DNA of 64,000 bases from Moorena sp. SIO3A5 (GCF_010672205.1 NZ_JAAHHD010000019.1:95963-159962); one strand, 5' to 3'; positions 1,542 to 64,000 are shown, counted from the first letter of the stretch. The notes: generated from the sequence alone by a model not told the origin. Translations and numbers: made by a program.

Positions 1542-4500
1542 TCATTCTAAATTCTTTTGAGCAAACTTCCGCAGTTTAGGATCGGGGTCATGCTTTGCTC
1601 TATCCTGCAATAAAGACCTGCTTTGGGAATGGTTAGGATAGTATTTGAGAATGGCCTGAAGGGCTATTTGTCGAGGATTGTAATTCTCGTCATCTCTCTC
1701 GTAATCTCTGTCTTTATCAGGGTCAAAGGGGTCATGGAGAGTGCGATCGCATAAAAATTGCGATAACCAAGGCTGGTCGTGCCAAGCTTGAGCTAACTGT
1801 TGAATTGCTTTACCTCGCACATCCGAATCAGTATCAGAGCGAGCGGATTCTTGAAGTATGGGTAAAGTATCTGGGTGGTCTTGGTAACCTTCAGCTAACT
1901 GTTCTATTGCTGTAACTCGCACATCCGAATCTTTATCAGAGCGAGCGGATTCTTGAAGTAGGGGTAAGGTATCTTGGTGGTCTTTGTAACCTTCAGCTAA
2001 CTGTTTAATTGCTGTAACTCGCACATCCGAATCTTTATCAGAGCGAGCGTATTCTTGAAGTAGAGGTAAGGTATCTGGGTGGTCTTGGTAACCTTGAGCT
2101 AACTGTTGAATTGCTTTACCTCGCACATCCGAATCAGTATCAGAGCGAGCCGATTGTTGAAGTAGAGGTAAGGTATCTGGGTCGTCTTGGTAACCTTTAG
2201 CTAACTGTTTAATTGCTGTACCTCGCACATCCGAATCACTATCAGAGCGAGCGGATTCTTGAAGTATGGCTAAGGTATCTGGGTGGTCTTGGTAACCTTT
2301 AGCTAACTGTTCTATTGCTTCACCTCGCACATCCGAATCAGTATCAGAGCGAGCGGATTCTTGAAGTATGGCTAAGGTATCTGGGTGGTCTTGGTAACCT
2401 TGAGCTAACTGTTCTATTGCTTTACCTCGCACCCACGAATCACTATCAGAGCGAGCGGATTCTTGAAGTAGGGGTAAGGTATCTCGGTGGTTTTTGTAAC
2501 CTTGAGCTAACTGTTTTATTGCTGTAAATCGCACCGACGAATCATTATCAGAGCGAGCCCATTTTTGAAGTAGGGCTAAGGTATCTCGGTGGTCTTTGTA
2601 ACCTTGAGCTAACTGTTCTATTGCTGTAACTCGCACCGACGAATCTTTATCAGAGCGAGCCAATTTTTTAAGTAGGGGTAAGGTATCTGGGTGGTCTTTG
2701 TAACCTTTAGCTAACTGTTCAATTGCTGTAGCTCGCACCTTCCAATCATTATCAGAGCGAGCCAATTTTTTAAGTAGAGGTAAAGTATCTGGGTGGTCTT
2801 GGTAACCTTTAGCTAACTGGCAAATTGCTGTACGTCGCACCTTCCAATCATTATCAGAGCGAGCCAATTTTTTAAGTAGGGCTAAGGTATCTGGGTGGTT
2901 AGGATAATATTCGAGGATGGCATTAAGGGCTACTTGTCTAGGATTGCCTTTTATTCTCAAGATCAACCCGAGTTTCTTATCTTCTTCATTAGCATCATAG
3001 GGGTCATGGAGAGTGCGATCGCATAAAAATTCCCATAACCAAGGCTGATTGGCCGTAGGCCACGCTTCGCGATCGTGCCAACCTTGAGCTAACTGTTCAA
3101 TTGCTGTAAGTCGGACATACCAATGTTGATCACAGCGAGCGGATTCTTGAAGTAGGCGTAACGTATCTCGGTTGTCTTGCCAGCCTTGAGCTAACTTTAC
3201 AATTGCTTTACATCGCACCAACCAATCAGTATCACAGCGAGCCAATTCTTGAAGTAGGCGTAACGTATCTGGATGGTCTTGCCAATGGGTGGCTACTGCT
3301 ACAACAGCTGGGATGGAAATACCATAGATTAAGTCTGGATCAAATAAATACTTTTGATAATCATACTTTATAGTATCATGAATTAAGTCTTTGAAGCGAT
3401 TCAGTAATTCACTATCCGTTGATTTAATCTGATACCGATTCCTAACTTCAGACAAACAACCCGCTGCCAGAAATAAATTATCAAACTCATCCGCTTCTCC
3501 ATCTTGTGCCATCAAATACTCAATAATTTCTCCAGCTTTCTTAGAATCAATCATGCCCACAATTAACTTCAGCACTTCATGCCAATACTCATCCCGCCAG
3601 TGCTGACCAAATACCTGTTTTTTCAAATGTTCTAGGGAAATATCCTGGGTTTTCTCAAATTTCCTGACAAATTCCCAAGCACAGAAATATTCCAAAAATG
3701 TCCGATGCACAAAAGCGTAATAATCGGCTCCCATGAAACACAAGATAAAATTGCGGGTGCGCAACTGATTAATCATTACCTTAGCAACCGCTCTCGGGTC
3801 ATTAACATCCCGTAATTTCAGCTCCTCTTTGATAATCCGTTCTAAATCCTCTCCACTAATCAGATTTCCCGCTAATCCGGCTTGATTACCCTGCATAAAA
3901 TATGCCACTTTTCTTAGTATATGTTGCTTATATTCATCATCAATAATCTTCGGGTCAACACGATGATCTTCTTGTAATGCTCGTTCCACATCCCATTGAT
4001 GGAGCAGTAATCGAGAGGATTGGTTATAGAGTTCAGAGCGGTCACGAGGCAAGTCTTGATTGCGATTCAGGATTGCCATCATGGTTAGTAATAGGGGATT
4101 TTGCGCCAGTTCTCGAATCCGATAGGATGTCTCAATGGCTTTTTGTAAGCGATCCTGTTTCCTAACTTTATCGGCTTGATCAGTAAAGTTTAATTTATGC
4201 CACTTCTCAATAAAGTTTTGAATTTGTTCTGACTCCAAGTCTTGGAGCATAACATGACGGAATTCAGCATCCCGTAGCCGTTGGGGTTTATAACCAATTA
4301 CCCGAGATGTTACAATTACTCTTACTTTAGGATAGCGATTGGTAAAGCGATGAATCTCCGTAATTACATCTATTCGTTTCTCTGGATCAAACACTTCATC
4401 CAAGCCATCAAACATAACTAACACCTTACCATCTTTTAACTCCTGATCAAGGTGATGTTGATTCAGATGACATATCGCTCCACTGCTTTGATGGCAGAAT

Positions 4501-5675: not shown

Positions 5676-8600
5676 CTATAATTTTGCTAACTCCTCCTTA
5701 GCAAACTTCTGCAGTTCAGGATCGGGGTCATGCTTTGCTCTATCCTGTAATAAGGATCGGGTTTCGGAATGGTTAGGATAATATTCCAAGATGGCATTAA
5801 GAGCTACTTGTCGAGGATTGTCATCCCAGTCTTCCTTACCTTCAAAGGGTTCATGGAGAGTGCCATCCCATAAAAATTCAAATAACCAAGGCTGGTCTTT
5901 CCAACCTTGAGCTAACTGTTGAATTGCTGTAGATCGCACATCCGAATCAGTATCACAGCGAGCCGATTCTTGAAGTAGAGCCAAGGTATCTCGGTGGTCT
6001 TTGTAACCTTTAGCTAACTGTTCTATTGCTGTAACTCGCACCTGCCAATCAGTATCAGATCGAGCCCATTGTTGAAGTAGGGCTAAGGTATCTCCGTGGT
6101 CTTTGTAAGCTTTAGCTAACTGTTCTATTGCTGTAACTCGCACAGTCGAATCAGTATCAAAGCAAGCCCATCCTTGAAGTAGGGCTAAGGTATCTCCGTG
6201 GTCTTTGTAAGCTTTAGCTAACTGTTCTATTGCTGTAACTCGTACCCACGAATCAGTATCACAGCGAGCCCATCGTTGAAGTAGGGCTAAGGTATCTCGG
6301 TGGTTTTTGTAAGCTTTAGCTAACTGTTCTATTGCTGTAATTCGTACCCACGAATCAGTATCAGGGCGAGCCAATTCTTGAAGTAGGGCTAAGGTATCTT
6401 GGTTGTCTTTGTAACTTTTAGCTAACTGTTCTATTGCTTTACATCGAACATCCGAATCAGTATCACAGCGAGCCAATTCTTGAAGTAGGGCTAAGGTATC
6501 TTGGTCGTCTTTGTAACCTTTAGCTAACTGTTCTATTGCTCTAACTCGCACCTGCCAATCTTGGTCAGAGCGAGCCAATTCTTGAAGCAATGCTAAGGTA
6601 TCTCGGTGGTCTTTGTAAGCTTTAACTAACTGTTCTATTGCTTTACCTCGCACCCACGAATCAGTATCAGAGCGAGCCAATTCTTGAAGTATGTCTAAGG
6701 TATCTATGTTGTTTTTGTAAGTTTTAACTAACTGTTCTATTGCTCTAACTCGCACCCTCCAATCATTATCACAGCGAGCCGATTGTTCAAGTATGGCTAA
6801 GGTATATTGGTGGTTTTTATAACTTTTAGCTAAATGTTCAATTGCTCTAACTCGCACATCCGAATCAGTATCACAGCGAGCCAATTGTTTAATTAGGGCT
6901 AAGGTATCTTTGTGGTCTTTGTAACCTTGAACTAACTGTTCAATCGCTCTAAATCGCACCCACAAATCAGTATCACAGCGAGCCAATTCTTGAAGTAGGG
7001 CTAAGGTATCTTTGTGGTCTTTGTAACCTTGAACTAACTGTTTAATTGCTATAGATCGCACCCACAAATCAGTATCAGAGCGAGCCAATTTTTTAAGTAG
7101 GGCTAAGGTATCTCGGTGGTCTTTGTAACCTTGAACTAACTGTTCAATTGCTCTAACTCGCACATACCTATCAGCATCCGAGCGAGCCAATTTTTTAAGT
7201 AGGGCTAAGGTATCTCGGTGGTCTTGCCAATGGGTGGCTACTGCTACAACAGCTTTAGTGCGAATATCACGGACTAAGTTGGCCTCATCTCCATACTTGT
7301 TATCAGTAGAATTTAGATCATAATGAATTAATTCTTTGATGCGATTCAGTAATCCAATATTCGTTGATTTAATCTCATACCGATTCCTAACCTCAGATAA
7401 ACAATCCCCTGCCAGAAATAAATTATTAAAATCATCCTCTACTCCACCTTGTGCCATCAAATACTCAATAATCTCTCCACCTTTGGTAGAATCAATCATG
7501 CCCACAATCAACTGCAGCGCTTCATGCCAATATTCATCCCGCCAGTGCTTACCAAATACCTCAGTTTTCAACTGTGCTAGGGAAATATCCTGCTTTTTCT
7601 CAAATTTCCTGACAAATTCCCTAGCACAGAAATAGTCCAAAAATGTCCGATGCACAAAAGCGTAGTAATCTGCTCCTATTGAACAAAATATAAAATTGCG
7701 GGTACGCAACTGATTAATCATTACCTTAGCCACCGCTCTGGGATTACTAACCTCCCGTAATTTCAGCTCTTCTTTGATAATTCTTTCTAAATCTTCCCCA
7801 CTAATCAGATTTCGCGCTAATCCTCCTTGATTACCCTGCATAAAATATGCCACTTTTCCCAATATCTCTTGCTTATCTTGATAATCAATAGTCTTCGGAT
7901 CAACACGATTATCTTCTAGTAATGCTAGTTCCACATCCCATTGATGGAGCAGTAAGCGAGAAGATTGGTTATAGAGTTCAGAGCGGTCACGAGGCAATTC
8001 TTGATTGTGGTTCAGGATTGCCATCATGGTTAGTAATAGGGGATTTTGCGCCAGTTGTCGAATCCGAGAGCATGTCTTAATGGCTTTTTGTAAGCGCTCC
8101 TGTTTCCTATCTTTATCCGCTTGATCAGTAAAGGTTAACTCATGCCACTGCTCGATAAACGTTTGAATTTGTTCCGACTCCAAGCCTTGGAGCATTACAT
8201 GACGAAATTCAGCATCCCGTAGCCGTTGAGGTTTATAACCAATTACCCGAGATGTCACAATTACTTGTACCTTAGGATACTGATTCGTAAAGCGATGAAT
8301 ATCAGTAATGACATCTTCTCGTTTCCCTGGCTCAAACACTTCATCCAAGCCATCAAACATCACTAAAACCTTACCAGCCTTTAACTGATCATCAAGTTTA
8401 TTTTGATTGATATCACATATCGCTCCACTACTTTGATGGCAGAATTCCAAGAAATTCTGACACTGTCCACTATCGCGATTCCGGATATAAGTGGGTAAGT
8501 CAATCAGTAACGGAATCCGTAGAGAACTTTCAGTAGTTAGATCAGTTCTTGCCCACTCCAATGCTAAATATTGCAGTAAGGTAGATTTACCAGAGCCTGG

Positions 8601-11667: not shown

Positions 11668-12471
11668 TCGATCCTAGGGATTAAGGTTATTTGGTTATTC
11701 CCCATTGACATCCAGTGTAGCGTAAGTTAATCGGTTGTTCACCTTTAGTGTCCAGTGCAGGGTAGGTTATTTGGTTGGTTATCGGTTAATCAGCTGTAGT
11801 ATATCAAATGTAGTATCTCAAACTGGTTAGCTCCAGAGGTCTCGGTTGTAGGGCTTTAGTTGTAGACCTAAAGGGGTCAAAAGCCAGTCTCAACCTTTAT
11901 AGCATTTGTCATAGTTATCAAGTACATTCAATTTTCTTATCCAATCTTGATGGACTCGCTCATGGAGGGGAAGCCATCATGAAGGCGCTGGCTCCCCAAT
12001 GGCTGGGCTGCTCCCTACTCTCTACTCCCTGCTCCCTATTCCCTAACAACCAGAGCCTAAGTACCTGACCCAATTGAGAACTACTTTATAATCCTTCACC
12101 TAATTGTTTACTTTCGTAAAATGTAGCTTAATATAATTAAGGCTTTATAATACTTGTAAAAGTTAGTCAAGAACAAAAATTAACCTAAAGTTGCGGTCTG
12201 TAACGTAATTAATGGGATTTTTGGGATGAGTATCACCGATTCTCATTTACCGATTACCCCTTACTAAACTCAGTTACAGCAAAGACTCCAGGTCAATACA
12301 GCAACCAGAGCTTTTTTTGTTCTCCTACTTTGTAAGCACCCCGCTCGCCCATAGACGAGGCAATAACACCAATAGTTAATCCCACATCTCCGCCAGCGGG
12401 TAGGACCAACGGGCTAATCTTGCCCGAATAGCTAAAAAACTCGGTTAAAAACTTCTAGGTATACGATTATT

Positions 12472-44024: not shown

Positions 44025-46925
44025 TCAATTGCGCAGAATCAACCGTTGCCGATGAACATGCAACAAACGAAACTCCCGCTGCGCCACCTGCTCCAACATA
44101 TAAATAATGTGCTCTGGTCGCAACATCGTGCCATCATTCAAACAACTCCCCACATACCGCAAAACCACCCCAGACTCCGCAACCTCCTCTTCACCATCTT
44201 TGGATTTTTGGGGTTCGATCACCTCGAAGTCAAATAAGCGATCGCATAAATTCACCCACTGCTTCTTCCCCGACTTCGTAAACCGCTCCCACCAAATTTC
44301 CTTACTACCTTTGATTGCTTCAATCCAACCCTGCCACTCTTCCCAAGACGCTTCTGATATTACCTCAACTCGAATCAAATACTCAGCTCTCTCCAACAGC
44401 TGAGTTCCCGCAGGTTCCTTCAAATCCACTGCTTCAACCCCATACACCGGAATCTCTTTAGGCAACTGAGACACCAGCCTTTCCCTAAACTCCTCAACTG
44501 GCATTTTCTCAGTTAACTCAAACTCCACAATCTCCCCACTGCTAGACGCTCCCAAGGGCAACGCATTAGCAATCATAATCCGAGCATTAGCCCGAAACCC
44601 CCCACTATATCGAATTGGCAGTGACGCCCGTCTTACTGCTCTCTCAAACAGACTTGCCAAATCCAGATGACCCAACAAGGTCATATCCCCCAACTTCCCA
44701 AAGCAAACCCGCAGCCGCTGATCCTTATTAGTATTGGGTTTAAAGTGACCAGCAAATTGCGGAATCTGTGGCGGCTCAATCACTACATTATGACCAAAAT
44801 CAATCCCACACACACCACAGTGAGAACACCCATCAAAGGAACAATCCGGTACCGTTGCTGCATCTAACGCCCGTTGTAAATCTTCCTTGAGCCAATTCTT
44901 ATCAATTCCCGTATCAATATGATCCCAAGGCAAGGGAGCATCAAGGGCGTTAAGGGTTGACGGTTGAAGGTTAGCTGGTTGAAGGTTAGCTGGTTGAAGG
45001 TTAGAAGGTTGAAGGTTAGAAGGTTGAAGGTTAGAAGGTTGAAGGTTAGAAGGTTGAAGGTTAGTTGGTTGAAGGTTAGTTGGTTGAAGGTTAGCTGGTT
45101 GAAGGTTAGTTGGTTGTCGGTTAGTTGGTTGTCGGTTAGTTGGTTGTAGGTTAGCTGGTTGTAGGTTAGCTGGTTGCTCTGAACTTTCAACCTTGGCCTT
45201 TTGGCCACGCTTCGCGAACAACCTTCCAACTTGCAACTCTTCTACACCCGCCATCACGTTCCATTCGCCATTTTCTACTTGGCGATATTTCCAGGTCAGA
45301 CCTGATGAAGCGATCGCATTTTCCCAAGCAGCAAATGCCCGATCCAAGCTTTCCATCCAGGAGTCCATCCCTGCCCCCAATTCCCAAGCACGGCGCACCA
45401 CCGCACTTAAGCGTCTGTCACCCCGTCCCACGAAATCTTCCATGGCCGAAATCCGAACATCGGTGTAATTAACCTTCACCCCCCTGATCTGACCAAATAC
45501 TTGTTTGAGTAATTCCTGCTTGCGTTCAAACTCCGAAGTCGATACGGAATGCCACTGGAATGGGGTGTGAGGTTTTGGGGTAAAATTAGAAACAGTTATG
45601 TTAAACTTAATGGTTTTTCTGCCTTTAGCACGGCACTCCTGCTGCAACCAACGCACCGTTTCCGCAATCCCCAACACATCCATATCCGTTTCACCGGGCA
45701 AACCAATCATAAAATAGAGCTTGACTTTCTCCCAGCCTTGCTCAAATGCCGTCTTTACTCCCCTGAGCAGTTCTTCATTAGTCAGTCCCTTATTAACAAT
45801 ATCCCGCATCCGCTGAGTTCCTGCTTCTGGGGCAAAGGTCAAGCCACTCTGCCGATTGCCCCCTAGGATATTGGCAATATTCTCATCAAAGCGGTCTACC
45901 CGCTGACTCGGTAGGGACAAGGAAATATTCTGATCCTTAAGACGATTTTTGATTTCCATCCCCACCGCTGGTAGAGCCAGGTAATCCGAACAACTCAGGG
46001 ATAGAAGGGAAAACTCGTTATACCCTGTAGCACGCATCCCTTGTTCAATAGCTTCCACCACTTTTTCTGGTTCCACATCCCGCGCTGGTCGAGTCAGCAT
46101 CCCAGGTTGGCAGAAGCGACAACCCCGAGTACAGCCCCGTCGCACTTCGATCTTGAGTCGGTCATGAACCGTTTGGATATAGGGTACTAGTCCAATAGCA
46201 TAGGCAGGCATCGGTGTAGCCACACGCCGCAAAATCCGCTTCGGCACATCAGGGCGGTTGGGTTTAACTGAGCCATCCTCAGTCATATCATAGAATTGGG
46301 GGACATACACCCCTGGTATCTGAGCCAAATCCAGGAGTAACGCTTCTCGACTTAAGCCAGCTGCTTTGCCTTCTTCGATTACTAAGCCAATCTCTGGCAA
46401 CAATTCTTCCCCATCGCCAAGATCAACAAAATCTAAGAAATCAGCATAGGGTTCAGGATTCGATGTCGCCGTTTGTCCACCTGCAAAAATTAGGGGTATT
46501 TCCGATATATCAAACTGAGCACGGTCTTTCCAGGTCAGGGGAATTCCTCCCAAATCCAACATTTCCAAGATGTTGGTTGCCCCTAATTCATAGCTAAGGC
46601 TAAAGCCAATAATATCAAAATCTTTCAGAGGTCGCCGATTCTCGACAGCAAACAGAGGGGTTTGAGTGGAACGTAATTTAGCTGCCAAGTCTGGGGCAGG
46701 TAGATAGGCGCGATCGCATAATTGCCTAGGTTGATAATTCAATATATTGTAGAGGATGATATGGCCTAAGTTAGAAGCCCCCACTTCATAGATTTCTGGA
46801 TAAGTCAATACCCAGCGTACCTCAGCTTCTTCCCAAGGTTTATGGACTGCTCCCAACTCGTTACCTAAGTAACGGGCTGGTCTGTTGATGTCTGGTGTTA
46901 ATATTTCCTCTACAGTGATTGCCAT
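44025..46925 (-). CDS. Fused B12-binding/radical-SAM protein (TIGR03960-like) and DUF2344 (TIGR03936-like) with internal proline/asparagine-rich repeat linker
   Basis: The radical-SAM cysteine motif is CTRGCRFCQPG. The C-terminal DUF2344-like block is …RVCFGKLGDMTLLGHLDLASLFERAVRRASLPIRYSGGF…. A '(P/Q)(A/T/S)NLQ' linker of about 75 aa lies between the two domains. Confidence 0.8.
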   Translation of the reverse strand: MAITVEEILTPDINRPARYLGNELGAVHKPWEEAEVRWVLTYPEIYEVGASNLGHIILYNILNYQPRQLCDRAYLPAPDLAAKLRSTQTPLFAVENRRPLKDFDIIGFSLSYELGATNILEMLDLGGIPLTWKDRAQFDISEIPLIFAGGQTATSNPEPYADFLDFVDLGDGEELLPEIGLVIEEGKAAGLSREALLLDLAQIPGVYVPQFYDMTEDGSVKPNRPDVPKRILRRVATPMPAYAIGLVPYIQTVHDRLKIEVRRGCTRGCRFCQPGMLTRPARDVEPEKVVEAIEQGMRATGYNEFSLLSLSCSDYLALPAVGMEIKNRLKDQNISLSLPSQRVDRFDENIANILGGNRQSGLTFAPEAGTQRMRDIVNKGLTNEELLRGVKTAFEQGWEKVKLYFMIGLPGETDMDVLGIAETVRWLQQECRAKGRKTIKFNITVSNFTPKPHTPFQWHSVSTSEFERKQELLKQVFGQIRGVKVNYTDVRISAMEDFVGRGDRRLSAVVRRAWELGAGMDSWMESLDRAFAAWENAIASSGLTWKYRQVENGEWNVMAGVEELQVGRLFAKRGQKAKVESSEQPANLQPANLQPTNRQPTNRQPTNLQPANLQPTNLQPTNLQPSNLQPSNLQPSNLQPSNLQPANLQPANLQPSTLNALDAPLPWDHIDTGIDKNWLKEDLQRALDAATVPDCSFDGCSHCGVCGIDFGHNVVIEPPQIPQFAGHFKPNTNKDQRLRVCFGKLGDMTLLGHLDLASLFERAVRRASLPIRYSGGFRANARIMIANALPLGASSSGEIVEFELTEKMPVEEFRERLVSQLPKEIPVYGVEAVDLKEPAGTQLLERAEYLIRVEVISEASWEEWQGWIEAIKGSKEIWWERFTKSGKKQWVNLCDRLFDFEVIEPQKSKDGEEEVAESGVVLRYVGSCLNDGTMLRPEHIIYMLEQVAQREFRLLHVHRQRLILRN
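44949..45175. repeat. In-frame 15-nt microsatellite (ggttgaaggttagct-like, about 15 units) inside the radical-SAM CDS
   Basis: It encodes the NLQP(A/T/S) linker repeats. It is also the source of spurious opposite-strand ORFs. Confidence 0.9.
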
Positions 46926-51204: not shown

Positions 51205-52779
51205 CTAAGGATTATAAAAAACTCCATCGCTACCACTGATTTCTTCTTCCAAAGATACCCTAATTCCTCGACGAGCAATTTCAAAAATAGTTAAGATAAA
51301 TTCTCCCAATTGAAAATATTGGGTTTGACGTAATTGTTTCCTATGGCGTTGTTTGCCGCTAATCCGCTCATTGATATGGCTTGCATAATATAAAATTAGG
51401 CTAACTAATAGCCAACCTAATAAACTCAATAGAGCTGTTACAATGATAATAATCAGCCAGCCTAAGAACTGACACAACACTTGTAATAATGGATCGTCAT
51501 ATACATCAAGTTCCGAGTACAACAGAGAACTATTGCTACTAAAGATTCCTAAGGCAATCGTTCCCCAAAATCCACAGAAAAGGTGAACAGGAATCGAACC
51601 TACGGGGTCGTCAATTTTCCAAACTTGTAGAAAATATTCGCCTAAAAGGACAAAAATACCGCTGATAGAGCCAATTATAAATGCACTTTTGATATCTACA
51701 AAAGCAGCTGAGGCTGTAATTCCCACCAACCCACCTAAAATGCCATTGATAATTGAGGCTAGACTGGGTTTTCCCAGGATAATTGGACTAAAAAATACGC
51801 TGGATATTCCACCAGCTGCTGCTGCCATCATGGTAGTTGTGATGGTATTAGCTACATAATCGAGATCCTTTGCTGAGCCACCATTAAAACCAAACCAGCC
51901 CAGCCAAAGAATTAAGCAGCCTAAGGTGGCTAAACCCAGATTATCGGCAGAGAACTTTTCAGTTTCGAGACCTTCATATCTATCTGTTCTTAAATTGTAG
52001 CCAAAACGACCTTGTCGTGGCTTTAGTAGCCAAGCCCCTACCAAGCCAGCCATACCACCAACACTATGGACTACAGTTGAACCCGCAAAATCATGAAATT
52101 TTAGCGCCTTGGCTAGCCAACCATAGTGTCCCCAAACCCAGTGACCGGTTACGGGATAGATAAAACCAACCAGGAAAAAACTAAATAGGAGAAATGCCCA
52201 GAATTTTACCCGTTCAGCAACAGCTCCTGAAACAATAGTGGCTGCAGTTCCAGCAAAGACTAACTGAAATAAAAATAGAGCCGCAAAGGAGCGATTAGAC
52301 CAATCTTGATTGAGACAATTAAATCCTGATTCTGGAAAACCAAGATTTCCAAATTGGGGAAAGGGAAGATTAAAAAACAACCCCTTTTGACCCACTAAAC
52401 TTAAACTATTATTTTCTCCTGGAACACAACTGTAAGTGATGCCATCACCAAACATTAAGCCAAAGCCAACTAGCCAAAAGGCTAAGGCTGATATACAGAA
52501 AACTATCAAATTTTTAGCCAAGACATTAGTCGCATTTCTCCGTCTACATAACCCGGCTTCTAACATGGCAAAGCCAGCATTCATAAAAAAGACTAGAAAA
52601 GATGAAACTAACAACCAGATAGTAGACAGGTTAGTGAAATTATTCGTGTTACTATCTTGTGCTACTGCTACACCAAGCCATCCCAGCAGGATGGTAATAG
52701 CCAAAGATAGGCAGAAGTACCAACGGCTCGGTACCCGGATGATTTGGTGTTTTAATCTCTTGTACTTATGTCGAGACAT
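51205..52779 (-). CDS. amt: Ammonium transporter (Amt family)
   Basis: …MNAGFAMLEAGLCRRRNATNVLAKNLIVF…GAVAERVKFWAFLLF… with 11 TM segments. The start is chosen at MSRHKYK. The track ORF continues to 52839, where it overlaps the tnpB remnant. Confidence 0.85.
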   Translation of the reverse strand: MSRHKYKRLKHQIIRVPSRWYFCLSLAITILLGWLGVAVAQDSNTNNFTNLSTIWLLVSSFLVFFMNAGFAMLEAGLCRRRNATNVLAKNLIVFCISALAFWLVGFGLMFGDGITYSCVPGENNSLSLVGQKGLFFNLPFPQFGNLGFPESGFNCLNQDWSNRSFAALFLFQLVFAGTAATIVSGAVAERVKFWAFLLFSFFLVGFIYPVTGHWVWGHYGWLAKALKFHDFAGSTVVHSVGGMAGLVGAWLLKPRQGRFGYNLRTDRYEGLETEKFSADNLGLATLGCLILWLGWFGFNGGSAKDLDYVANTITTTMMAAAAGGISSVFFSPIILGKPSLASIINGILGGLVGITASAAFVDIKSAFIIGSISGIFVLLGEYFLQVWKIDDPVGSIPVHLFCGFWGTIALGIFSSNSSLLYSELDVYDDPLLQVLCQFLGWLIIIIVTALLSLLGWLLVSLILYYASHINERISGKQRHRKQLRQTQYFQLGEFILTIFEIARRGIRVSLEEEISGSDGVFYNP

Positions 52780-52792
52780 CAAAGCAAGCTTT

Positions 52793-54139
52793 CTAGTTTT
52801 TTGACACTCCCCGGTCGCGCATACGCGGGGATTCTTCATTCAACGAGCCAGCTTGCTGAACCTGGCCGGAACCAAGAACAGTAGAGGCCGATTCTCCTGA
52901 AGCGTTTAGATATTTTAAGATCCAGGTTCCGGTGTGCCCCACCGTACCCAAGGCTTTCTTAAGGATGTTTATTGCGGCGTTGTGGTCTCTATCTAACTGA
53001 CAACCACACTTGCACGTATGAGTCCTAGTTGATAGGGACTTTTTAACTTCTTCGCCACAATTGGAACAGTTTTGGCTGGTATATGCAGGATTTACTGCAA
53101 CTGTTACCTTTCCGAACTTGGTGCCAAAGTGCTCCATCCATTTCCTAAACTGATACCAACCTGCATCATTAATAGACTTAGCGAGGCAGTGATTTTTTAC
53201 TAGGTTCTTGGCTCTTAAGTCGACCTAGGCGACCAGATCGTTAGAACAGATTACGCAGCGCGCCGGAGACGAAACCTTAGAATAAAGAAGCCTTAATAAC
53301 AAAGATTTAACCCTTTTATGCATAGCCGACTAACCATAAAGGCTTCTTTATTCTTACGGTAACTTCGTTCCCAGTCTCTTGGCGTTCTCTTCACGTTGCC
53401 TACTTATCTTAAGGTGCTGTCTGCCTAGTCTATTAACTGCTTTATTTCGATTGGATGAGCCTTTCTTCTTGCGAGAAACTCGACGCTGGTAGAACTTAAG
53501 GCGTTTTTCTCCCGTTCTGTAAAAGCAGGGATTTGGTTCAGTTTTTCCAGCGGAATCAGTGTAAAAATATTTTAGTCCAACATCCAAGCCGATAGCTGTC
53601 CCACTTGGCTCTAGTTCCTCTTTGATATCAACTGAAACACAAAACTGGACATAATAACCATCAGCCCGGCGAACTATACGGACTCGCTTTATTTCCTTTT
53701 TATCCAAGCGCCACAAGTCCCATCTACCTTTAAGCTTAAGCTTCCCAATACCCTTTTTATCACTAAAGGTGATTGACTTCTTGTCAGGGGATAACTTCCA
53801 TCCAGACTGTTTATACTCCACTGAGCGGCAGTTTTTCTGGAACTTAGGAAAACCTTTCTTTCCAGGTACTTTTTTCTTGCAGTTATCAAAGAATCGAACA
53901 ATTGATGACCATGCTCTTTCAGCACTAGACTGACGAGCAGTAGAGTTTAATTCATTAGCAAAAGGAAAGTTTTTAGCAAGGACTGCACTGTACTTATTAA
54001 GGTCAAATTTGTTGACCCCTTTATTTTCCATCCAATACCTGAGGCAGCTATTACGGATGAACTGGACTGTCCGGATAGCCTCGTTGATCCCAGAGTATTG
54101 ATGTTTTTTTCCTTTCGCCTTGAACTCTAAAATGATCAT
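52793..54139 (-). pseudogene. tnpB: IS200/IS605-family tnpB (OrfB) remnant split into N-terminal (54139..53354) and C-terminal (53137..52793) pieces; about 70 aa including the RuvC-II region are missing
   Basis: The N-terminal piece is MIILEFKAKGKKHQYSGINEAIRTVQFIRNSCLRYWMEN…IGLDVGLKYFYTDSAG (RuvC-I). The C-terminal piece is …VAVNPAYTSQNCSNCGEEVKKSLSTRTHTCKCGCQLDRDHNAAINILKKA (the zinc finger and RuvC-III). A 216-bp non-homologous insert lies between them and contains a hairpin element. Confidence 0.8.
53265..53367. mobile_element. PATE/MITE-like hairpin element (family 'GGAGACGAAACCTTAGA…TTACGGTAACTTC'), copy inside the split tnpB
   Basis: ggagacgaaaccttagaataaagaagcctta-[loop]-taaaggcttctttattcttacggtaacttcg. 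It has a long perfect internal stem. Confidence 0.7.
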
Positions 54140-54147
54140 CAGCTTCT

Positions 54148-54250
54148 TAAAGTTACCGTAAGAATAGGGTCGCCTTATAACAACAGTTTTAACCCTTTTT
54201 CCATAGCCGACAAACCATAAAGGCGACCCTATTCTAAGGTTTCGTCTGGG
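54148..54250. mobile_element. PATE/MITE-like hairpin element, inverted copy at the 5' (LE) side of tnpB
   Basis: aagttaccgtaagaatagggtcgcctta-[loop]-taaaggcgaccctattctaaggtttcgtctgg. The stem sequence differs from copy 53265..53367 by compensatory changes, and the loop is conserved. Confidence 0.7.
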
Positions 54251-54409
54251 ACCTAAACTGTTCACTCCCTTATTTTACAACATCCAGACTAAAATTCCGG
54301 ATTTTCCTGAAATATTTTTCTAGGCGCGTCAAGCCGCTGTGAGCCTTCATCCCCGGTCATTAGACACGGGGTTTTCGGCTTTGGGGGATTTTTATAAAAG
54401 GACAGAGAT

Positions 54410-56467
54410 TTACGCGAATCTGTTCACAGCAGAAGCTGAGCCATCTTCTAGCTTTGAGTTAAAAGGAAGCTGAGCCTCTGAGTTCGCTAGTTCTTGAAAA
54501 TGAATAACTTCTTTACGGGGATCAGCATGACTGACTTTGACGTGTAAGCGATCGCCTAATTGAACCGAACGCTGGAAACGCATGGGCAATTCTAGACCTA
54601 ACTCTTCTAGGAGAATGTTGCCCTTATTCTCGTTTTCTCGCCACCAACTGAGTACTAATACTTGCCAAACCTGATTCGGGTTACGCCGCAAATATTCCAA
54701 TCCCCAATATTTGTTGGTATCACGTTCTACTTCACTAGCATCCTTAGCTGTTCTGGTTACACTCTGCATCGTTTCGAGCAAATCTTCAGCTTCAAAGGGT
54801 AGGGGGTCACCCCGTAGATGAGCTTTCAGCTGGAAATGAGTCATTAAGTCAGTGTAGCGGCGGATCGGAGAGGTTACCTGGGTGTAAGTTTCCAAAGCCA
54901 AACTAGCGTGGCGTGTTGGGGTAATGCTCATTTCGCTTCTAGGCATACACCGACGCATGGCACAGAACCGCACTGGACCGGCTGGCAATAGCAGCAGTTC
55001 TTCTTGGGATGGAAGTTCTGGCTGGGGTTGTCCTCGGAATGGTAGTGGAATTTGGTGCGCTTGACCATAGCGTCCAGCCACTTCACCTGCCAGAATCATC
55101 ATTTCTGCCACCATTTGCCGTGATGGTGAATCTTCTAACACCTCAATGGTAATTTGGTCATCATTTCCCACCTTGATTACCGACTCTGGCATATGGATGC
55201 TAATCGCCCCCTGAGACTTGCGCCACTTTTGCCGACGCACAGCCAAGTTAGCGATCGCAAACAGTTCTGTTTCTGCCTGTACCCCTAACTGCAACATTTC
55301 ATCTACATCTTCATAAGTCAGGCGATAGGTGGGTTTAATCAGGCTGGGGTGAATCTGATAGTCATAGATGGCACCATCTTGATCCAAGATCACGCCAAAA
55401 CTGAGTGCGCCACAGACTTGACCTTGAACCAAACTCATTGGACCAGTTGCCAGTTCCGATGGGAACATGGGAATCATGCCCGTGGGTAGATATATGGTGG
55501 TACTACGCCGTCGTGCTTCTAGGTCAAGATTATCCCCTGGCATTACCAAGCGGGTTGGGTCAGCGATGTGAATCCACAGACGCTGAGTGCCATCCTCTAG
55601 ATCTTCTATACTCAAACCATCATCTATTTCTTGGGTACTTTCATCATCTATGGTGTAGAGTTTCAGATGAGTTAAATCCAAGCGATCTGAATCTGGGTCA
55701 GTAGGAGGATTTGCCAGGTATTGCTGGGTCAATTCGAGTACCTCACGACGAAATTGAGTTGGGATTTTATGACGCAGCAAGTACTTCTGGTGAGGACGCC
55801 ACAAACCCAAATTTATCAATAAATCGAAGGCATTTTCTGGGTTTTGAGGGCGTTTTAGTGCTTCCAGAGTTTCCTGAACTGCACGAGATGGTTTATCTGG
55901 TTCACTAACGAACCGTTCTAGAGCATCAAAGCGAGTGCGATCGCTATCAACCCACTCTACTTGCTCACCCCCTAACTTTTGCTGTACTCGCTTCAAAAAT
56001 TCTTCTTGTTCCTGGTGCTTTGATTGAGCCGCTGCCAGTTGATGCTTGATTTCAGCCACCATGCTAGCGGAGCGGGGTTCATAGGTTTGTGCTTTTTGTT
56101 TAAAATAGATTTTGTCTTCAAACAGAATACAGTGTGCCGCATAGCACTGGGGTGGACTTTGCTCAGAAAATAATAACTGTGCCATGTCAGCACAGGTAAC
56201 CGCCTCTCCTTCTTCCACCAGTAATTCCCAAGCTAATTCTAAGCTATCTGGGTCTAGATAGGGTTGTACTCGAGCAATAAACTCTGGTATTTGTGATGGC
56301 TCATAAGTAGAATCTGCCACTGTGTAGGTGACTTGTCGAGGATGGAGCTTGTGCAGTTTCCCCCGTTGATCCAAAGCAATCAAGTGGTTCTTGCCCTCTG
56401 GACGATCGACAACAGCGAGATGGCGTTCTCCTTGTAAGCGAAATTCGATTAGTGTTCCCTTTTCCAC
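54410..56467 (-). CDS. RNase II/R-family 3'-5' exoribonuclease (RNB domain)
   Basis: 685 aa. The RNB catalytic region is …IDDESTQEIDDGLSIE…MIPMFPSELATGPMSL…, with a C-terminal S1-like tail. Its position next to rpsR-rpmG is conserved. Confidence 0.85.
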   Translation of the reverse strand: MEKGTLIEFRLQGERHLAVVDRPEGKNHLIALDQRGKLHKLHPRQVTYTVADSTYEPSQIPEFIARVQPYLDPDSLELAWELLVEEGEAVTCADMAQLLFSEQSPPQCYAAHCILFEDKIYFKQKAQTYEPRSASMVAEIKHQLAAAQSKHQEQEEFLKRVQQKLGGEQVEWVDSDRTRFDALERFVSEPDKPSRAVQETLEALKRPQNPENAFDLLINLGLWRPHQKYLLRHKIPTQFRREVLELTQQYLANPPTDPDSDRLDLTHLKLYTIDDESTQEIDDGLSIEDLEDGTQRLWIHIADPTRLVMPGDNLDLEARRRSTTIYLPTGMIPMFPSELATGPMSLVQGQVCGALSFGVILDQDGAIYDYQIHPSLIKPTYRLTYEDVDEMLQLGVQAETELFAIANLAVRRQKWRKSQGAISIHMPESVIKVGNDDQITIEVLEDSPSRQMVAEMMILAGEVAGRYGQAHQIPLPFRGQPQPELPSQEELLLLPAGPVRFCAMRRCMPRSEMSITPTRHASLALETYTQVTSPIRRYTDLMTHFQLKAHLRGDPLPFEAEDLLETMQSVTRTAKDASEVERDTNKYWGLEYLRRNPNQVWQVLVLSWWRENENKGNILLEELGLELPMRFQRSVQLGDRLHVKVSHADPRKEVIHFQELANSEAQLPFNSKLEDGSASAVNRFA

Positions 56468-56810
56468 CAGTTCTGATAACCCGGGTAGCGTTTACCAAAT
56501 CCACCTCCCCCCAGTCTATCCTGTGTTGTTGAGATACCCAACTCGGCAGACGGGGTCAAGTCTAAAGTCTGAAGTCTGAAGTCTGAAGTTGTCAGTGGTC
56601 AGTGTAACTCCTGGTTGGGTCGCAAGTTTTTAGTTAACCATGTCTTGATGCAGAGCGCGAGTGGGGGAATTCCCCGTGAGGCCACTGCATCGCGCGCCTC
56701 AGCCATCGATCACCCCATTTCATCCTTCATACTTCATCCTTCATCCTTCTTATTTGATATTTGATTCTTCACACGGGAAATATCCCAGAGGAAGACCGTG
56801 ATTGTTCACC

Positions 56811-57026
56811 TTAACCTTCTTTATTAATATAGGGTAGCAAAGCCAAGAACCTTGCTCGCTTAATGGCTGTGGTTAGCTTTCGTTGTTGTTGAGTCGTTAG
56901 ATTAGTAATGCGGCGGGGTAGGATTTTTCCCCGTTCAGTGATAAACTTGCGCAGCAACTCAACATCTTTATAGTCGATCGGTTCATCGGGTTTGATCGGA
57001 GAGAGACGTTTACGAAAGTAAGTCAT
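56811..57026 (-). CDS. rpsR: 30S ribosomal protein S18
   Basis: …[50 protein letters not shown]…. Confidence 0.9.
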
Positions 57027-57100
57027 GATTGGTTGTGATTGGTGATTGGTTATTTAGGTTACTGGTTACTGATTATAGTCATTTGTTCTTTGGTAAGTAT

Positions 57101-57180
57101 TCAGCTATCAGCTATCAGCTATCAGCTATCAGTTATCAGTTATCAGCTTATGGGCTATCAGTTATCAGCTTATGAGCTAT
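57101..57180. repeat. Heptanucleotide STR (tcagcta / tcagtta)
   Basis: Direct reading of the sequence. Confidence 0.9.
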
Positions 57181-57479
57181 TAGCACGCTACTTAAGCTGC
57201 TTAGGTTTCTTTTATTCTGACGGCACCTGAAGTAGAGTGAGCCATTCGCGTAGCGTGACTCAAAGGCCAATGTTCACGGCTGACCACTGAATGCTTACAA
57301 TAAAACAGGTAAGCATTGGTTTAAGCTGAGTTACTTGAGCTGACCGCTGATAGCTGACCGCTGAACGCGCACGCGTGTGCGTAGCACATAAGCTGAATAC
57401 TTGTTCTTTGTTGCTTGTTCTTTGTCAATAGTCCATTTTCAATTAACAAATTCAATTCACAAATGACCAAGGACCAAAT

Positions 57480-57674
57480 CTATTTGATTTCTTTGTGAAT
57501 CATGTGCTTGTTGCAATGGGTGCAAAATTTCTTCAGTTCCAGACGTGATGATGTGTTACGGCGATTCTTCCTAGTGGTATAGCGGGAAACACCAGCCGAG
57601 CGCTTATTGGAGTAACTGCGACATTCAGTACATTCTAGAGTAATAACGATTCGGACACCTTTCTTACTTGCCAT
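57480..57674 (-). CDS. rpmG: 50S ribosomal protein L33
   Basis: [57 protein letters not shown] has the zinc-ribbon Cx2C…Cx2C. Confidence 0.9.
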
Positions 57675-58185
57675 AGTTTTTTTTCTAAGAACTCAAATAT
57701 TACAATTAAACACAATTTACTATTATCTCATGGGATGCCCCAGTCTATCAAGTAGATGCAAAATTGCTCAAGTCTCGGGAAAAACCTCACGCCTTGTTGG
57801 CACCATCATCGTGCAGGGCAATCTGGTCACTGACAAGGGCAGCCCACAGTAGTATCCTTGAAATGCGATTAGCTAGACCAATCAAGCCAATCATCATCGC
57901 GCTTTAGTGCAGCGAAGCCAACCATGCTCTCCAGTTTAGTTAGAGTCAGTAACCGGTGCAAGGGTAACGAATCTAACCTCAAGAATCAAGATAACCGAAA
58001 GCCCACTACCCTAAACTCTGAGCCGGATTGGTGTATAATAGCACGACTCCCGTAACTAGCCAGACCAACTCGAAGATCAGCATCTGCAACATATAAAAGC
58101 CAAGAGTATTTTTGATCAGGAGTGAGCTGACCAGCCATACTCCTACAAAATCGATATCGAAAGCAGCAGCCCGCCACTCTATTGC

Positions 58186-58281
58186 TATAGCAGTCGCCAG
58201 GGCAGTTAGGACATGACAAAAGTCTCACACCCTTTGTAAGCGCAAGAGTTTGACTTCTGACAAATGACTTCTGCTATACCT
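58186..58281. repeat. ~100-bp element with 'TATAGCAG…CTGCTATA' termini (copy 1); the second copy is at 59462..59570
   Basis: ctatagcagtcgccagggcagttaggacatgacaaaagtctca…ttctgac…ctgctatac is duplicated 1.28 kb downstream with the ttctgac heptamer expanded. Confidence 0.7.
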
Positions 58282-58670
58282 TAGGGAAAGCGGGGATGAA
58301 ATGGTTTTCTAGTGACATACTCCCGACGCTGACAAGCACGGTACAGCGCGGGCTTCATTAAACTAAGCCAGTGAGTCACCTCTGACTCGTCTTCAAAAAC
58401 GTACGTGATACTTTCGCATCATACGGCTCATCATTACAGTACAATCCTTGACATTGGCTCCTCTAGAACGGATTTTCATCTAACTCTTTTGAGTTGGTTT
58501 TGCTTCCGTGTTTGGCATCATGGCAATGTAGGTGTAATAATTCGAGATTTTTGTCTGAATTATTTCCATCCAGTGCGCGTGGTATTATATGGTGCTTTTC
58601 CAACAAATCTCCATCTCTGTTCGCGAAGCGTCGGCTACGCCGAAGGTAAGACCACTGCGGAGTGCATTTC

Positions 58671-58778
58671 CGGAAACGAAACCTAAGATAGGGTCGCCTT
58701 ACTACAAAAGCGCCGTTACCTTTTACCCATAACCTACCAACGTTTGAAGTTACCCTATCTTAGGGTAACTTCAAACCC
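58671..58778. mobile_element. PATE/MITE-like hairpin element (solo copy)
   Basis: …gaaacgaaacctaagatagggtcgcctta…gaagttaccctatcttagggtaacttcaaaccc. Confidence 0.6.
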
Positions 58779-59010
58779 TTCTTGCCGTTTCAAAAGCCTT
58801 CCCGGAGACGAAACCTTAGAGAGGGTCGCCTTATTAAGCCCACCTACTTACGTCGTGTTTTATTGTATATTAATTACGAAGAGTATTCGATGTGCCTTGC
58901 GCGCATTCTTGAATGTACAACCAGCTTCTGGAGAAACCATTGGCTTAGACGGCAAAGTCCTTAAAGGTTCAGATCAGATTGAAAACGATAATCCCAATTC
59001 CGACTCCCAA

Positions 59011-59115
59011 GGAGACGAAACCTTAGAGAGGGTCGCCTTATTTCATATAACTTAAAACTATTACCCATAACCTGTTCCTATAAAGGCGACCCTCTCTTAC
59101 GGTAACTTCAAACCC
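59011..59115. mobile_element. PATE/MITE-like hairpin element (solo copy; a half-copy is at 58804..58840)
   Basis: ggagacgaaaccttagagagggtcgcctta-[loop]-taaaggcgaccctctcttacggtaacttcaaaccc. Confidence 0.7.
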
Positions 59116-59122
59116 AGCAATT

Positions 59123-59400
59123 ATGTTGGTCAGTTCTTACATTGTTGAGCGGGGCTTGATTTTAGAACCCTTTGAAGTTGATGCCAAAACCAACGAAATT
59201 AAAGCTTTACCAGAGTTGCTCAAGAAACTGGCTCTAAAAGGAGTTGTCAATGCCAATGATGCTATTAATACCCAAAAAAAACTTGTGAATTTATCGTCAA
59301 CAGTGGCAAGGATTATATAGCTGCTTTAAAAGGTAACCAACCAAGTCTATTTCAAGATGTTAAAACAAATTTTAGACCGGAATGGCTCTTCCGGCAATAT
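59123..59400 (+). pseudogene. ISAs1-family transposase fragment (frameshifted)
   Basis: …EVDAKTNEIKALPELLKKLALKGVV…. In the next frame comes …YIAALKGNQPSLFQDVKTNF…. This matches the conserved ISAs1 block 'KSNEI.A.P.LL…L.G…T.DAM.CQ…DY..ALKGNQ..L..DV'. Confidence 0.6.
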
Positions 59401-59461
59401 GGTGTAAAATGTAGCTAGTAATACTAAATGCTGTTAACCGACGGATGGACTTTCATCTAGA

Positions 59462-59570
59462 TATAGCAGTCGCCAGGGTAATTAGGACATGACAAAAGTC
59501 TCAAACTACAGTATGGCAAGAGTTTAACTTCTGACTTCTGACTTCTGACTTCTGACTTCTGCTATACTTT
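59462..59570. repeat. Second copy of the 'TATAGCAG…CTGCTATA' element with (ttctgac)x5
   Basis: See the 58186..58281 copy. Confidence 0.7.
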
Positions 59571-59825
59571 GTTAAATTTACCGAATGTAACCGTGTTCAC
59601 TTCTTATAAAAAAGAATAATTTATAATATTGAATTTGGATTTATTAAATGAAGTAATTAACTGTCCTAAGTGTCAAATTTATACGAATGACATTAATCAA
59701 AATCGACCAATTTTAGTGCGAGATTTATCCATATAGCGCTTTTTAGCCTCATCAGGTACACATATTTTTTTCCCTCTTCCCTCTTCCCTCTTCCCTGCTC
59801 CCTGCTTCCTGCTCCCTAAAACCTT

Positions 59826-59871
59826 AGGTGCGCTTTCCGTTGGCGAATTAAATTCGCCACGGGTCGCACCT
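59826..59871. repeat. Dispersed palindromic element (copy 4)
   Basis: aggtgcgctttccgttggcgaattaaattcgccacgggtcgcacct. Confidence 0.7.
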
Positions 59872-60039
59872 CAAAAACTTGTACCTTACTAGATTAAAAA
59901 CCGCTATATGTGGGCAAGGAGTATACTTACAAGTGCCTCGTCGTCAATTTTATTGTTGTCACTGTCAAAACTACTCAACTGAACCTTTAAGCTTTATATA
60001 AATGGGTCGTAATTATACAAAAATGGATGAATAATATAT

Positions 60040-60495
60040 CTATAATAAAGTTCAAGAATTAACAGTGGCACAAGTAAGCAAAAATGAACAATTAAGTCAA
60101 GAAAAAGTCGAAAAAATTTTTAAAATAATCCATAAGCAAAAAAAAATACTGGGTAACTCCACAACGGTTAAATATAGATGAATTTAGTCGAGCAAAAGGA
60201 AAAATAAAATTTGTTACCGTTGTTTGTGATATTGATAACAGTTATTTATTATAAGTAATTGACTCTCATAAGAGTGAAGAAATTATAGAAGTACTCAAGG
60301 AGCAACCTATTGCAATCAGGGGAAAAATCAAAGAAGTCAGTGTAGATATGTGGGGTGGATTTCAGAAAGTTGTCAAGGAAGTTTTTCCGTTCGCGTAGCG
60401 TGCGCGTAGCGCAAATGCTAATCTGGGAATAGATAGATTTCATGTCATAAAATTAGTTAACAAATCTCTGAACAAAATTCGCCTAGAGTTAGAGG
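60040..60495 (+). pseudogene. ISL3-family transposase fragment (interrupted by a short inserted repeat)
   Basis: …LSRAKGKIKFVTVVCDIDNSYLLEVIDSHKSEEIIEVLKEQPIAIR.KIKEVSVDMWGGFQKVVKEVFP then (inserted ttcgcgtagcgtgcgcgtagcg) NANLGIDRFHVIKLVNKSLNKIRLEL. This is the DDE_Tnp_ISL3 block '..D.F…G..Y.T.V.D…L…V.DM…Y……FP.A…DRFH..K'. Confidence 0.6.
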
Positions 60496-60630
60496 GAATG
60501 GGGAATGGGGAATGGGGAATGGGGAATGGGGAATGGGTAATGGGGAATGGGGAATGGGGAATGGGGAATGGGGAATGGGTGATGGGTAATGGGTAATGGG
60601 TAATGGGTAATAGGTAATAGGTAATAGGGG
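60494..60630. repeat. Heptanucleotide STR (ggggaat, then gggtaat/aggtaat), about 19 units
   Basis: Direct reading of the sequence. It produces a spurious 78-aa ORF on the minus strand. Confidence 0.9.
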
Positions 60631-60859
60631 GAGCATGTCACTAATGCCTAATATTTGTACATTATCTATAGCCCCCTCATGGGTAAAAGCCAAGCTGATC
60701 TGGTAAATAGTTCATCTGTTCTGCAACTAAGACCGGCTCAATAACATGATTTTTGTTGTTTTGTCAAGTAGTTCATTTGTTAGGCTTATTTGACCTGCTC
60801 CCCATCAAGACAGCGTGCCCGTAGCGCATTAGCTGACCGCTGAATGCTTACAAATCAAC

Positions 60860-63761: not shown

Positions 63762-63857
63762 AGGTGCGCTTTCCGCATCTAATGATTAAATTCGCTCAAG
63801 GTGCGCGCCTCCTAGGCCGGGGAACCCGGCCTAGGGTCGCACCTTCGGGTCGCACCT
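63762..63857. repeat. Dispersed palindromic element (copy 5, nested)
   Basis: aggtgcgctttccgcatctaatgattaaattcgc…ggtgcgcgcc…ggccggggaacccggcc…gggtcgcacc…gggtcgcacct. Confidence 0.7.
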
Positions 63858-63882
63858 GAAGATGCAGCGCATCCCTATTACC

Positions 63883-64000
63883 TATTACCTATTACCTATT
63901 ACCTATTACCTATTACCTATTACCTATTACCTATTACCTATTACCTATTACCTATTACCTATTACCTATTACCTATTACCTATTACCTATTACCTATTAC
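63883..64000. repeat. Heptanucleotide STR (ttaccta), at least 17 units, running to the window end
   Basis: Direct reading of the sequence. Confidence 0.9.

Follow-up and report, generated by a model that had tools for sequence, protein, structure and literature searches.

What kind of sequence are the ~100-bp hairpin repeats scattered through a stretch of Moorena DNA, and how do they spread? The stretch analysed here, hereafter the window, comprises 64,000 nt of Moorena sp. SIO3A5 (NZ_JAAHHD010000019.1, positions 95963-159962) and is 99.9% identical to the Moorena assembly GCA_010672265.1. An original prediction, made from the sequence of the window, had described five copies of a repeat with conserved ends, a conserved loop and compensatory substitutions in the stem, and had proposed that the hairpin is recognised as single-stranded DNA by a Y1 (TnpA) transposase or expressed as a structured RNA. 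The repeat family is real. All five stretches were recovered near the predicted places, as four full or rearranged copies and one fragment (Table 1), and the left-terminus motif GGAGACGAAACCTTAGA (at most 2 mismatches) occurs 5 times in the window compared to 0.15 times expected by chance. The right motif TCTTACGGTAACTTC was located at all four full copies. The copies end close to the predicted positions, except that the element runs a few nt further, to GGA... on one side and to ...CAAA, CTAA or CGTT, with or without CC, on the other. The results below suggest that the repeat is very probably a mobile hairpin element that inserts without target-site duplication (TSD). Our favoured reading is that it is a Moorena-specific, non-autonomous MITE (miniature inverted-repeat transposable element) of ~105 bp, lacking a TSD, whose folded DNA may be recognised by a Y1/HUH-type transposase; for this statement as a whole we estimate a probability of about 0.4.

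Mobility was assessed by comparing filled with empty sites, using Moorena loci fetched for comparison (L-numbers). Copy 2 lies between the tnpB start codon and the left-end hairpin of an IS605-type element. Two paralogous copies of this insertion sequence (IS), L022 and L099, have an empty site and read uninterrupted acagttgaggtc|gaa[ag]ctg, where the window reads aggtc[CCAGACG...ACTTTAA, 103 nt]gaagctg, with zero duplicated bases. Further pairs were L103 (filled) and L034 (empty), gtgaccac[TGGGACG...CTTCAAA]gacagg; L024/L073 and L106, gtgtgcc[GGAGACG...CTTCTAACC]ccacgg against empty gtgtgccccacgg; and L025 and L069, caagcc[...CTAACC]agcat against empty caagccagcat. Genes disrupted by the element include tnpB, an IS607 tnpA and an ISAs1 transposase. 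Excising the 108 nt of copy 1 (53265-53372) restores the ...AKRL|ARCVI... frame, and the rejoined TnpB matches Pfam OrfB_IS605 as one stretch spanning the junction (residues 165-280). Joining the reading frames that flank copy 5 gives a single-stretch match to NCBIfam transpos_ISAs1 over the junction (E 5e-16, below the family cut-off). In L015 (4231-5035), an IS607-family tnpA is broken by two hairpin elements in opposite orientations, at EYLV|SLNG and DLLS|IIHVF, and both points were confirmed by intact homologues, with the frames restored. Segmental duplication, in which the copies would be parts of a single duplicated segment with identical flanks, was rejected because the flanks differ between copies and empty sites exist. 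Together, the filled and empty sites, the nested copies and the independent insertions bear out the prediction of a dispersed, non-coding, hairpin-forming mobile family of the MITE or palindrome-associated transposable element (PATE) kind.

Nine insertion events, filled/empty or frame-inferred, were examined at the junctions. No classical TSD was found in any of the nine, and the base 5' of the inserted DNA was C in every one, usually as part of CC. The element inserts without TSD, immediately 3' of C and usually of CC. Favoured targets are C-runs, hairpin loops and other mobile elements, including terminator-like stems and the loops of other copies, and copies are nested in both the loops and the arms of other copies. 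The commonest single insertion site is the C-run of a ~26-nt tandem repeat (CATGAGCGACTGCCGTGGTTTCCCCC / ACTCGCGCTTTGC...; L003 4390-4440, L032 5590-5820, L035 1-160), where many insertions lie among abundant empty units; the copies there all carry the loop in 'flop' and differ in their arms. CC lies directly 5' of GGA in 17 of 38 independent contexts. Where CC does not abut GGAGACG, 1-5 extra nt stand between them (T, AA, A, ATA, AGATA, TTATA), and the same extra nucleotides recur in unrelated contexts. The elements of L103 and L052 are 100% identical in unrelated flanks and differ solely in the three bases before GACG, which in L103 are absent from the empty site. An origin of the extra nucleotides as P-nucleotides or by microhomology did not fit.

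Table 1. Copies of the hairpin element in the window and the insertion sequence that hosts two of them (positions count from the first letter of the window)
Feature	Position	Strand	Description	Basis
Copy 1, full element	53265..53371	+	stem AGAATAAAGAAGCC/GGCTTCTTTATTCT; 'flip' loop; 3' tail CGTTCC; interrupts tnpB pseudogene	
Copy 2, full element	54147..54249	-	reads CCAGACG...ACTTTAA; stem AGAATAGGGTCGCC; 'flop' loop	
Copy 3, rearranged element	58672..58777	+	left terminus, left arm and loop present	motif and sequence
Copy 4, 5' fragment	58804..58839	+	left terminus, left arm and first 8 nt of loop; unpaired left end	
Copy 5, full element	59011..59114	+	stem AGAGAGGGTCGCC; second loop type in 'flip'; tail CAAACC; interrupts ISAs1-family transposase pseudogene	
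Host element of copies 1 and 2	52793..54391	-	IS605-type, tnpB-only insertion sequence	open reading frames, Pfam matches

The family was then sought by scanning one genome per species with the pattern GACGAAACCTTAGA-N55-85-TTACGGTAACTT. The scan returned 105 stretches, all of them in Moorena: M. producens 3L, M. bouillonii PNG and three species represented by metagenome-assembled genomes. Copies number dozens per genome in at least five species. Counted strictly, the fetched loci and the window together hold 115 copies, of which 105 are unique; with 1-2 mismatches per terminus allowed, 134-142 paired copies lie within ~0.95 Mb of sampled Moorena DNA. A BLAST search of a plasmid collection with two copies as queries found no similar sequence, and no copies were found in the viral contigs scanned. 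A looser pattern gave 24 matches in a metagenome collection, all by chance and lacking the hairpin and the loop. In an Rfam scan no family matched the element, with E values of up to 5 allowed, and neither the terminal sequences nor any report of a Moorea MITE was found in the searchable literature. The family is genus-restricted and, as far as this literature shows, an undescribed variant of small non-autonomous hairpin elements.

The element is ~105 bp long and forms a single long hairpin with an imperfect outer stem. Its layout is 5'-(0-5 extra nt)-GGA-GACGAAACCTTAGA-(13-16 nt arm)-(~45 nt loop)-(complementary arm)-TCTTACGGTAACTT-C/T-(AAA/TAA/GTT)(CC)-3'. The termini are 92-100% conserved per position among copies retrieved by the loop alone; they are not self-complementary and pair only with each other. 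The outer stem carries an identical mismatch and bulges in every copy, and symmetrical ends were seen in none of 134. The inner stem of 13-16 bp always begins AGA...TCT and ends GCC...GGC, and its middle (xAG-KBK-M) is variable to the same degree as the loop, giving at least 30 different arms among the 105 unique copies. Pairing is kept while the stem sequence varies, as had been claimed: 87 of the 105 unique Moorena copies are complementary at all 14 of 14 positions, compared to a mean of 8.2/14 when a left arm is paired with the right arm of another copy, and positions 4-11 each show 3-4 types of Watson-Crick pair. The changes called compensatory in the original prediction do occur on both sides of the stem, but part of this signal reflects discrete subfamilies and exchange between copies. 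It is not wholly the outcome of nucleotide-by-nucleotide selection, as chimeric arms and different interiors at the same site show that copies exchange sequence.

Single-strand folding was scored against shuffled controls (200 shuffles). Copies 1 and 5 fold into one long hairpin (z -5.8 and -4.4). The long hairpin of copy 2 is weaker (z -3.1 to -3.4, with 0-1 of 200 shuffles equally stable). Copy 3 folds as a local 16-bp hairpin in place of the long one (z -6.2). In copy 3 an inverted partial copy of the right terminus takes the place of the right arm, giving GTTTGAAGTTACCCTA-TC-TTAGGGTAACTTCAAAC, and the loop matches the L064-type loop. Copy 4 is followed by unrelated DNA starting CCACCTACTTAC. 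The motif CC(C)ACCTACTTAC occurs at window 58840-58852, in L106 at ~12165-12180 and in L099 at ~6600, with a different downstream sequence each time, and is probably the terminus of another mobile element that truncates copy 4.

The loop of ~45 nt is moderately conserved and of at least two types. A conserved loop is present in the copies, as predicted, but its orientation is not fixed. The loop of copy 2 is flipped relative to the ends, since it has the same plus-strand orientation as that of copy 1 while the termini are inverted. Among the 105 unique copies, the two orientations of the loop relative to the asymmetric termini number 55 and 50, and an A.A mismatch at the loop base turns into T.T between them. 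The idea that the inner stem-loop is an independent element nested in a fixed shell was rejected: empty shells were not found and loops essentially never occur outside shells. Smaller palindromic inserts (CCCAGCGAGcaatcCCTCGCTGGGG and GCCGATTTTGGC) are nested in hairpin elements of L016 (minus-strand view, ~3000-3130) and in the loops of L009, L012 and L024. They are reminiscent of the 'small dispersed repeats' known from Nostoc.

Two tnpB codons and other repeated or orthologous sites carry occupants that differ in arms, loop orientation or 3' tail; the tnpB codon of copy 1 is one place where paralogous tnpB copies hold other variants of the element. Occupants of the same site with different interiors (L082/L093, L021/L031) keep termini and flanks that are 88-95% identical. 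The orthologous pair L005/L036 differs solely by three substitutions in one arm, which change the GGGTCGCC arm to GTGGAGCC, and chimeras of the two commonest arm types make up ~6% of copies. Because the same site carries elements with different interiors, copies exchange sequence, and we infer ectopic conversion or replacement together with inversion of the loop between the arms. Such exchange would swap short arm patches, whole interiors and 3' tails. Together with the inversion of the loop, it would account for the mosaic pattern of the arm types and for the equal (1:1) occurrence of both loop orientations.

What mobilises the element was considered in terms of four explanations, which we rank as a Y1/HUH-type enzyme, an IS607-type enzyme, conversion or capture with no enzyme dedicated to it, and an RNA function. 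Folded DNA is recognised by Y1 transposases, in RAYT/REP systems and at integron attC sites. The mobilising enzyme probably recognises the folded strand or an extruded cruciform, which would account for a stem sequence that drifts while its pairing and the asymmetric imperfections persist. Such an enzyme would be supplied in trans, and the best fit would be a duplication-free Y1/HUH enzyme acting on folded single-stranded DNA, of the IS200/IS605 or RAYT kind. We place it first because the fixed imperfections of the stem and the freely varying but paired inner stem point to folded-DNA recognition, and we hold the Y1/HUH mechanism itself only tentatively. The predicted recognition by Y1 TnpA was not demonstrated, and a series of observations weighs against it. 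In contrast to IS200/IS605 ends or REPs, neither terminus forms a palindrome by itself, and separate subterminal hairpins are lacking. Y1 elements typically have a fixed target of 4-5 nt, but the left flank here is only C or CC, and the 0-5 variable nt at the 5' boundary are unexplained. One Y1 tnpA gene was found, ~25 nt from one copy, but it is frameshifted and was the sole one detected by tblastn in ~1 Mb of sampled Moorena DNA; no named Moorena protein was among 15 database matches to it. A RAYT query gave no tblastn match in the same ~1 Mb. The Y1, RAYT and serine recombinase queries were approximate, and only positive matches, cross-checked by database names or Pfam, were used. An autonomous element with the same termini (GGAGACGAAACC... 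/ ...GGTAACTTCAAA) was not found, and in none of 105 loci did a left and a right terminus flank a gene at a spacing of 0.13-4 kb. Lastly, five of the nine events read CC[element]CC where the empty site, often within CCC or CCCC, has a single CC, which fits dinucleotide exchange at least equally well, and CC to the left is associated with CC after the 4-nt tail in the 38 contexts (both sides in 12, the left alone in 5, the right alone in 4 and neither in 17; Fisher p = 0.003), which fits the mechanism of a serine recombinase.

These last two observations favour an IS607-family serine transposase, with strand exchange across CC (GG) at both junctions and the target. IS607 elements have no terminal inverted repeats (TIRs), produce no TSD and carry an invariant GG at target and termini, with (G)GG preferred (PMC6188088, PMC4058570), and about half of our events match this behaviour. 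At least 45 distinct Moorena IS607 tnpA clusters were present among the top protein matches, itself an unusual expansion, and IS607 copies lie within a few hundred bp of hairpin elements at four loci. Against this, a repeated dinucleotide, and indeed any repeated base, is absent from the other four events (window copy 2, L103, L015 DLLS|IIHVF and L021b), and CC is missing on both sides in the 17 contexts counted above. A recombinase that binds double-stranded DNA also gives no direct reason for maintaining a 15-bp stem. Any excised circle, whose junction would read ...ACTTCAAA(CC)GGAGACG..., would be expected to integrate beside resident copies and leave head-to-tail tandems, and none were found. 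The ends of the hairpin element showed no similarity to six IS ends (two IS605-type; four IS607-type, covering four subfamilies). The two IS605-type elements have a left-end hairpin CCCCG...CGGGG, a right end ...GTCAA and insertion after TTAT/TTAC/TTCAAA, and the ends of the IS605-type IS of the window and of the L050 IS are unrelated to the hairpin element. Derivation from local insertion sequences was rejected by Smith-Waterman alignment with shuffled controls against two IS605-type and two IS607-type elements, with nothing at p <= 0.05, and two further IS607 loci showed no end similarity by eye and motif scan. A TGGTAG motif and the GTGGAGCC 8-mer in common with IS607 ends were judged not significant and are not conserved across copies. 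On balance we consider movement by IS607 transposases less likely than by a Y1/HUH enzyme, but a serious rival to it and more probable than the explanations that follow. In an extended form, the small excised circle could, as a conjecture, take a double-hairpin form that avoids bending strain, and the invariant GCC...GGC at the stem top could act as inverted crossover sites that flip the loop. The element would then belong to a previously undescribed class of TSD-less hairpin MITE, moved by a site-specific recombinase in place of a DDE or Y1 transposase, with IS607-type exchange at CC/GG, a ~105-bp circle in the form of a strain-free double hairpin, and the same recombinase flipping the loop at GCC/GGC and swapping whole interiors among resident copies by cassette exchange; this combined proposal is somewhat more doubtful still.

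Two further explanations were weighed. The family could be a decaying remnant that has no dedicated transposase at present and is spread and homogenised mainly by ectopic gene conversion, break capture and hairpin-templated (quasi-palindrome) repair, with the arms staying complementary through this repair and not through selection. The same-site occupants with different interiors, the arm patch of L005/L036, the chimeric arms and the finding of only one identical pair in clearly unrelated contexts are what this would produce, as are untidy junctions with extra 5' nucleotides or with a loss of 1-7 nt of target, the latter in L021b and nested cases. Precise, clean insertions at unrelated sites, the strongly non-random choice of C or CC, and dozens of copies per genome in several species argue in the other direction. 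Template-switch repair should also 'perfect' the outer stem, and neutral hairpin-templated repair as the sole explanation is weakened because the conserved termini were never symmetrised. We therefore regard a remnant as improbable. An RNA function, either as a functional structured RNA or as a regulatory module (small RNA, terminator or stabiliser, ribozyme) with pairing selected at the RNA level, would agree with the strong predicted folding and many double-sided stem changes, and several copies lie directly 5' of tnpB start codons (window copy 2, L007, L083). However, no Rfam family was matched, the loop can face either way with respect to the termini, copies are found within coding sequences and within one another in both orientations, stem mismatches are not enriched for G-T (3 of ~7), and a T-run after the hairpin is absent. 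The CGAAAC motif recalls hammerhead cores, but a hammerhead was rejected because CUGANGA is on neither strand of the consensus. The structured RNA of the original prediction is thus very improbable.

Among known systems, the Moorena element works most like a REPIN or a PATE and partly fits IS607. REPINs are doublets of REP sequences mobilised by RAYTs, and compensatory stem changes are common in them (Bertels & Rainey 2011; PMC3116915). Like REPINs, the Moorena copies are non-coding units of ~100 nt whose two inverted ends are conserved and whose middle is less so, and as single strands they form a long hairpin of doublet-like form with compensatory changes; they lack a TSD and form a lineage-specific family of tens to hundreds. 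They differ in that their termini are not short palindromes and have no GTAG head. CGTC is present on the complement of the left end, but lacks the adjoining 8-9 bp stem-loop defined in PMC3733652. Many Moorena copies are intragenic, in transposase genes, whereas REPINs are extragenic; the sampled Moorena loci showed no RAYT gene with the repeat on its flanks, and a conserved loop in both orientations is not described for REPINs. With IS200/IS605 PATEs and Y1 'peel-and-paste' transposition the element shares the lack of TSD, a strand-specific relation to the left flank, a probable dependence on folded DNA with conserved imperfections and the co-residence of many tnpB-carrying insertion sequences. 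It differs from them in the lack of separate left-end and right-end hairpins, in ends unlike the IS605-type ends in the same DNA, in the C/CC flank in place of a fixed tetra- or pentanucleotide, and in a ragged 5' boundary. Membership of either group fails because palindromic REPs do not form the ends, distinct hairpins at the left and right end are absent and no cognate gene was found. The likeness to IS607 lies in the absence of inverted repeats at the extreme tips and of TSD, in GG/CC at junctions and target in about half of the events, and in the abundance of the transposase in the same Moorena genomes; the ends are unlike the sampled Moorena IS607 ends and the dinucleotide signature is missing in about half of the events. 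We know of no description of an IS607-derived hairpin MITE. Measured against classical MITEs, which are deletion derivatives of DDE insertion sequences, the family is small, non-coding, multicopy and mobile, but a TSD was seen in 0/9 events, its ends are imperfectly complementary, and no TIRs in common with an autonomous IS were found in the 105 loci and six IS ends. Nezha, a MITE with TIRs common to ISNpu3 and flanking direct repeats (Zhou et al. 2008, summarised in PMC3184786), is, as far as that summary describes it, likewise small, non-coding, highly structured, mobile by filled/empty comparison and abundant in filamentous cyanobacteria; on the same description it differs from the Moorena element, which has no duplication and for which no parent IS was found. 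An integron attC site was rejected, as by inspection neither strand of the consensus has a 3' GTTRRRY and the copies are dispersed, not in cassette arrays.

The IS605-type element that hosts copies 1 and 2 is context and lies outside the hairpin family. It has a left-end hairpin CCCCGtgtctaatgaCCGGGG at 54351-54371 and a right end ...GGGGAGTGTCAA, and its tnpB (54139-52793) has an internal stop and carries copy 1. It sits between the RNase II and ammonium-transporter genes; in Moorea sp. SIOASIH (L106) the whole host segment is missing at this place, and an unrelated 123 nt stands there (L106 12076-12199). Apart from chance-level matches, the only Rfam match within 52500-60000 was to domain V/VI of a group II intron (RF00029), at 58357-58431 on the minus strand, 240 nt from copy 3, with 46.9 bits exceeding the gathering score; the region of the intron domain is absent from Moorea sp. 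SIOASIH. Elsewhere in the window, 1669-3366 and 5788-7311 hold two arrays of 102-bp (34-codon) tandem repeats, of 13 and at least 13 units with 60-92% mutual identity, which presumably represent two genes for repetitive proteins. Tandem arrays based on heptamers or on 15-bp units (GGGAATG, CCTATTA, CTATCAG, GTCTGAA) lie at 60466-60643, 63846-63992, 57080-57190, 56560-56590 and 44907-45191. Arrays of these types are common in filamentous cyanobacteria.

The large and repeat-rich genomes of Moorena are difficult to assemble, yet they are intensively mined for gene clusters of natural products. In practice, an element confined to this genus, with insertions into genes and recombination between its copies, causes breaks in assemblies as well as pseudogenes, and it may serve as a strain marker. 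Within ~100 bp it combines three types of constraint, namely invariant asymmetric termini, a stem in which only pairing is kept, and an invertible loop, and its insertions next to CC leave no duplication. This makes it a compact test case of how folded-DNA or dinucleotide-exchange recombinases define the ends of an element, and a test bed for whether 'compensatory' stem evolution in mobile DNA arises by selection or by copy-to-copy conversion. If a Y1 enzyme moves the family, the REPIN/PATE concept would be extended to non-palindromic ends. If IS607 transposases move it, it would represent new biology, and if the extended proposal with cassette exchange holds, it would be the first IS607-derived MITE and a natural case of recombinase-mediated cassette exchange among selfish elements.

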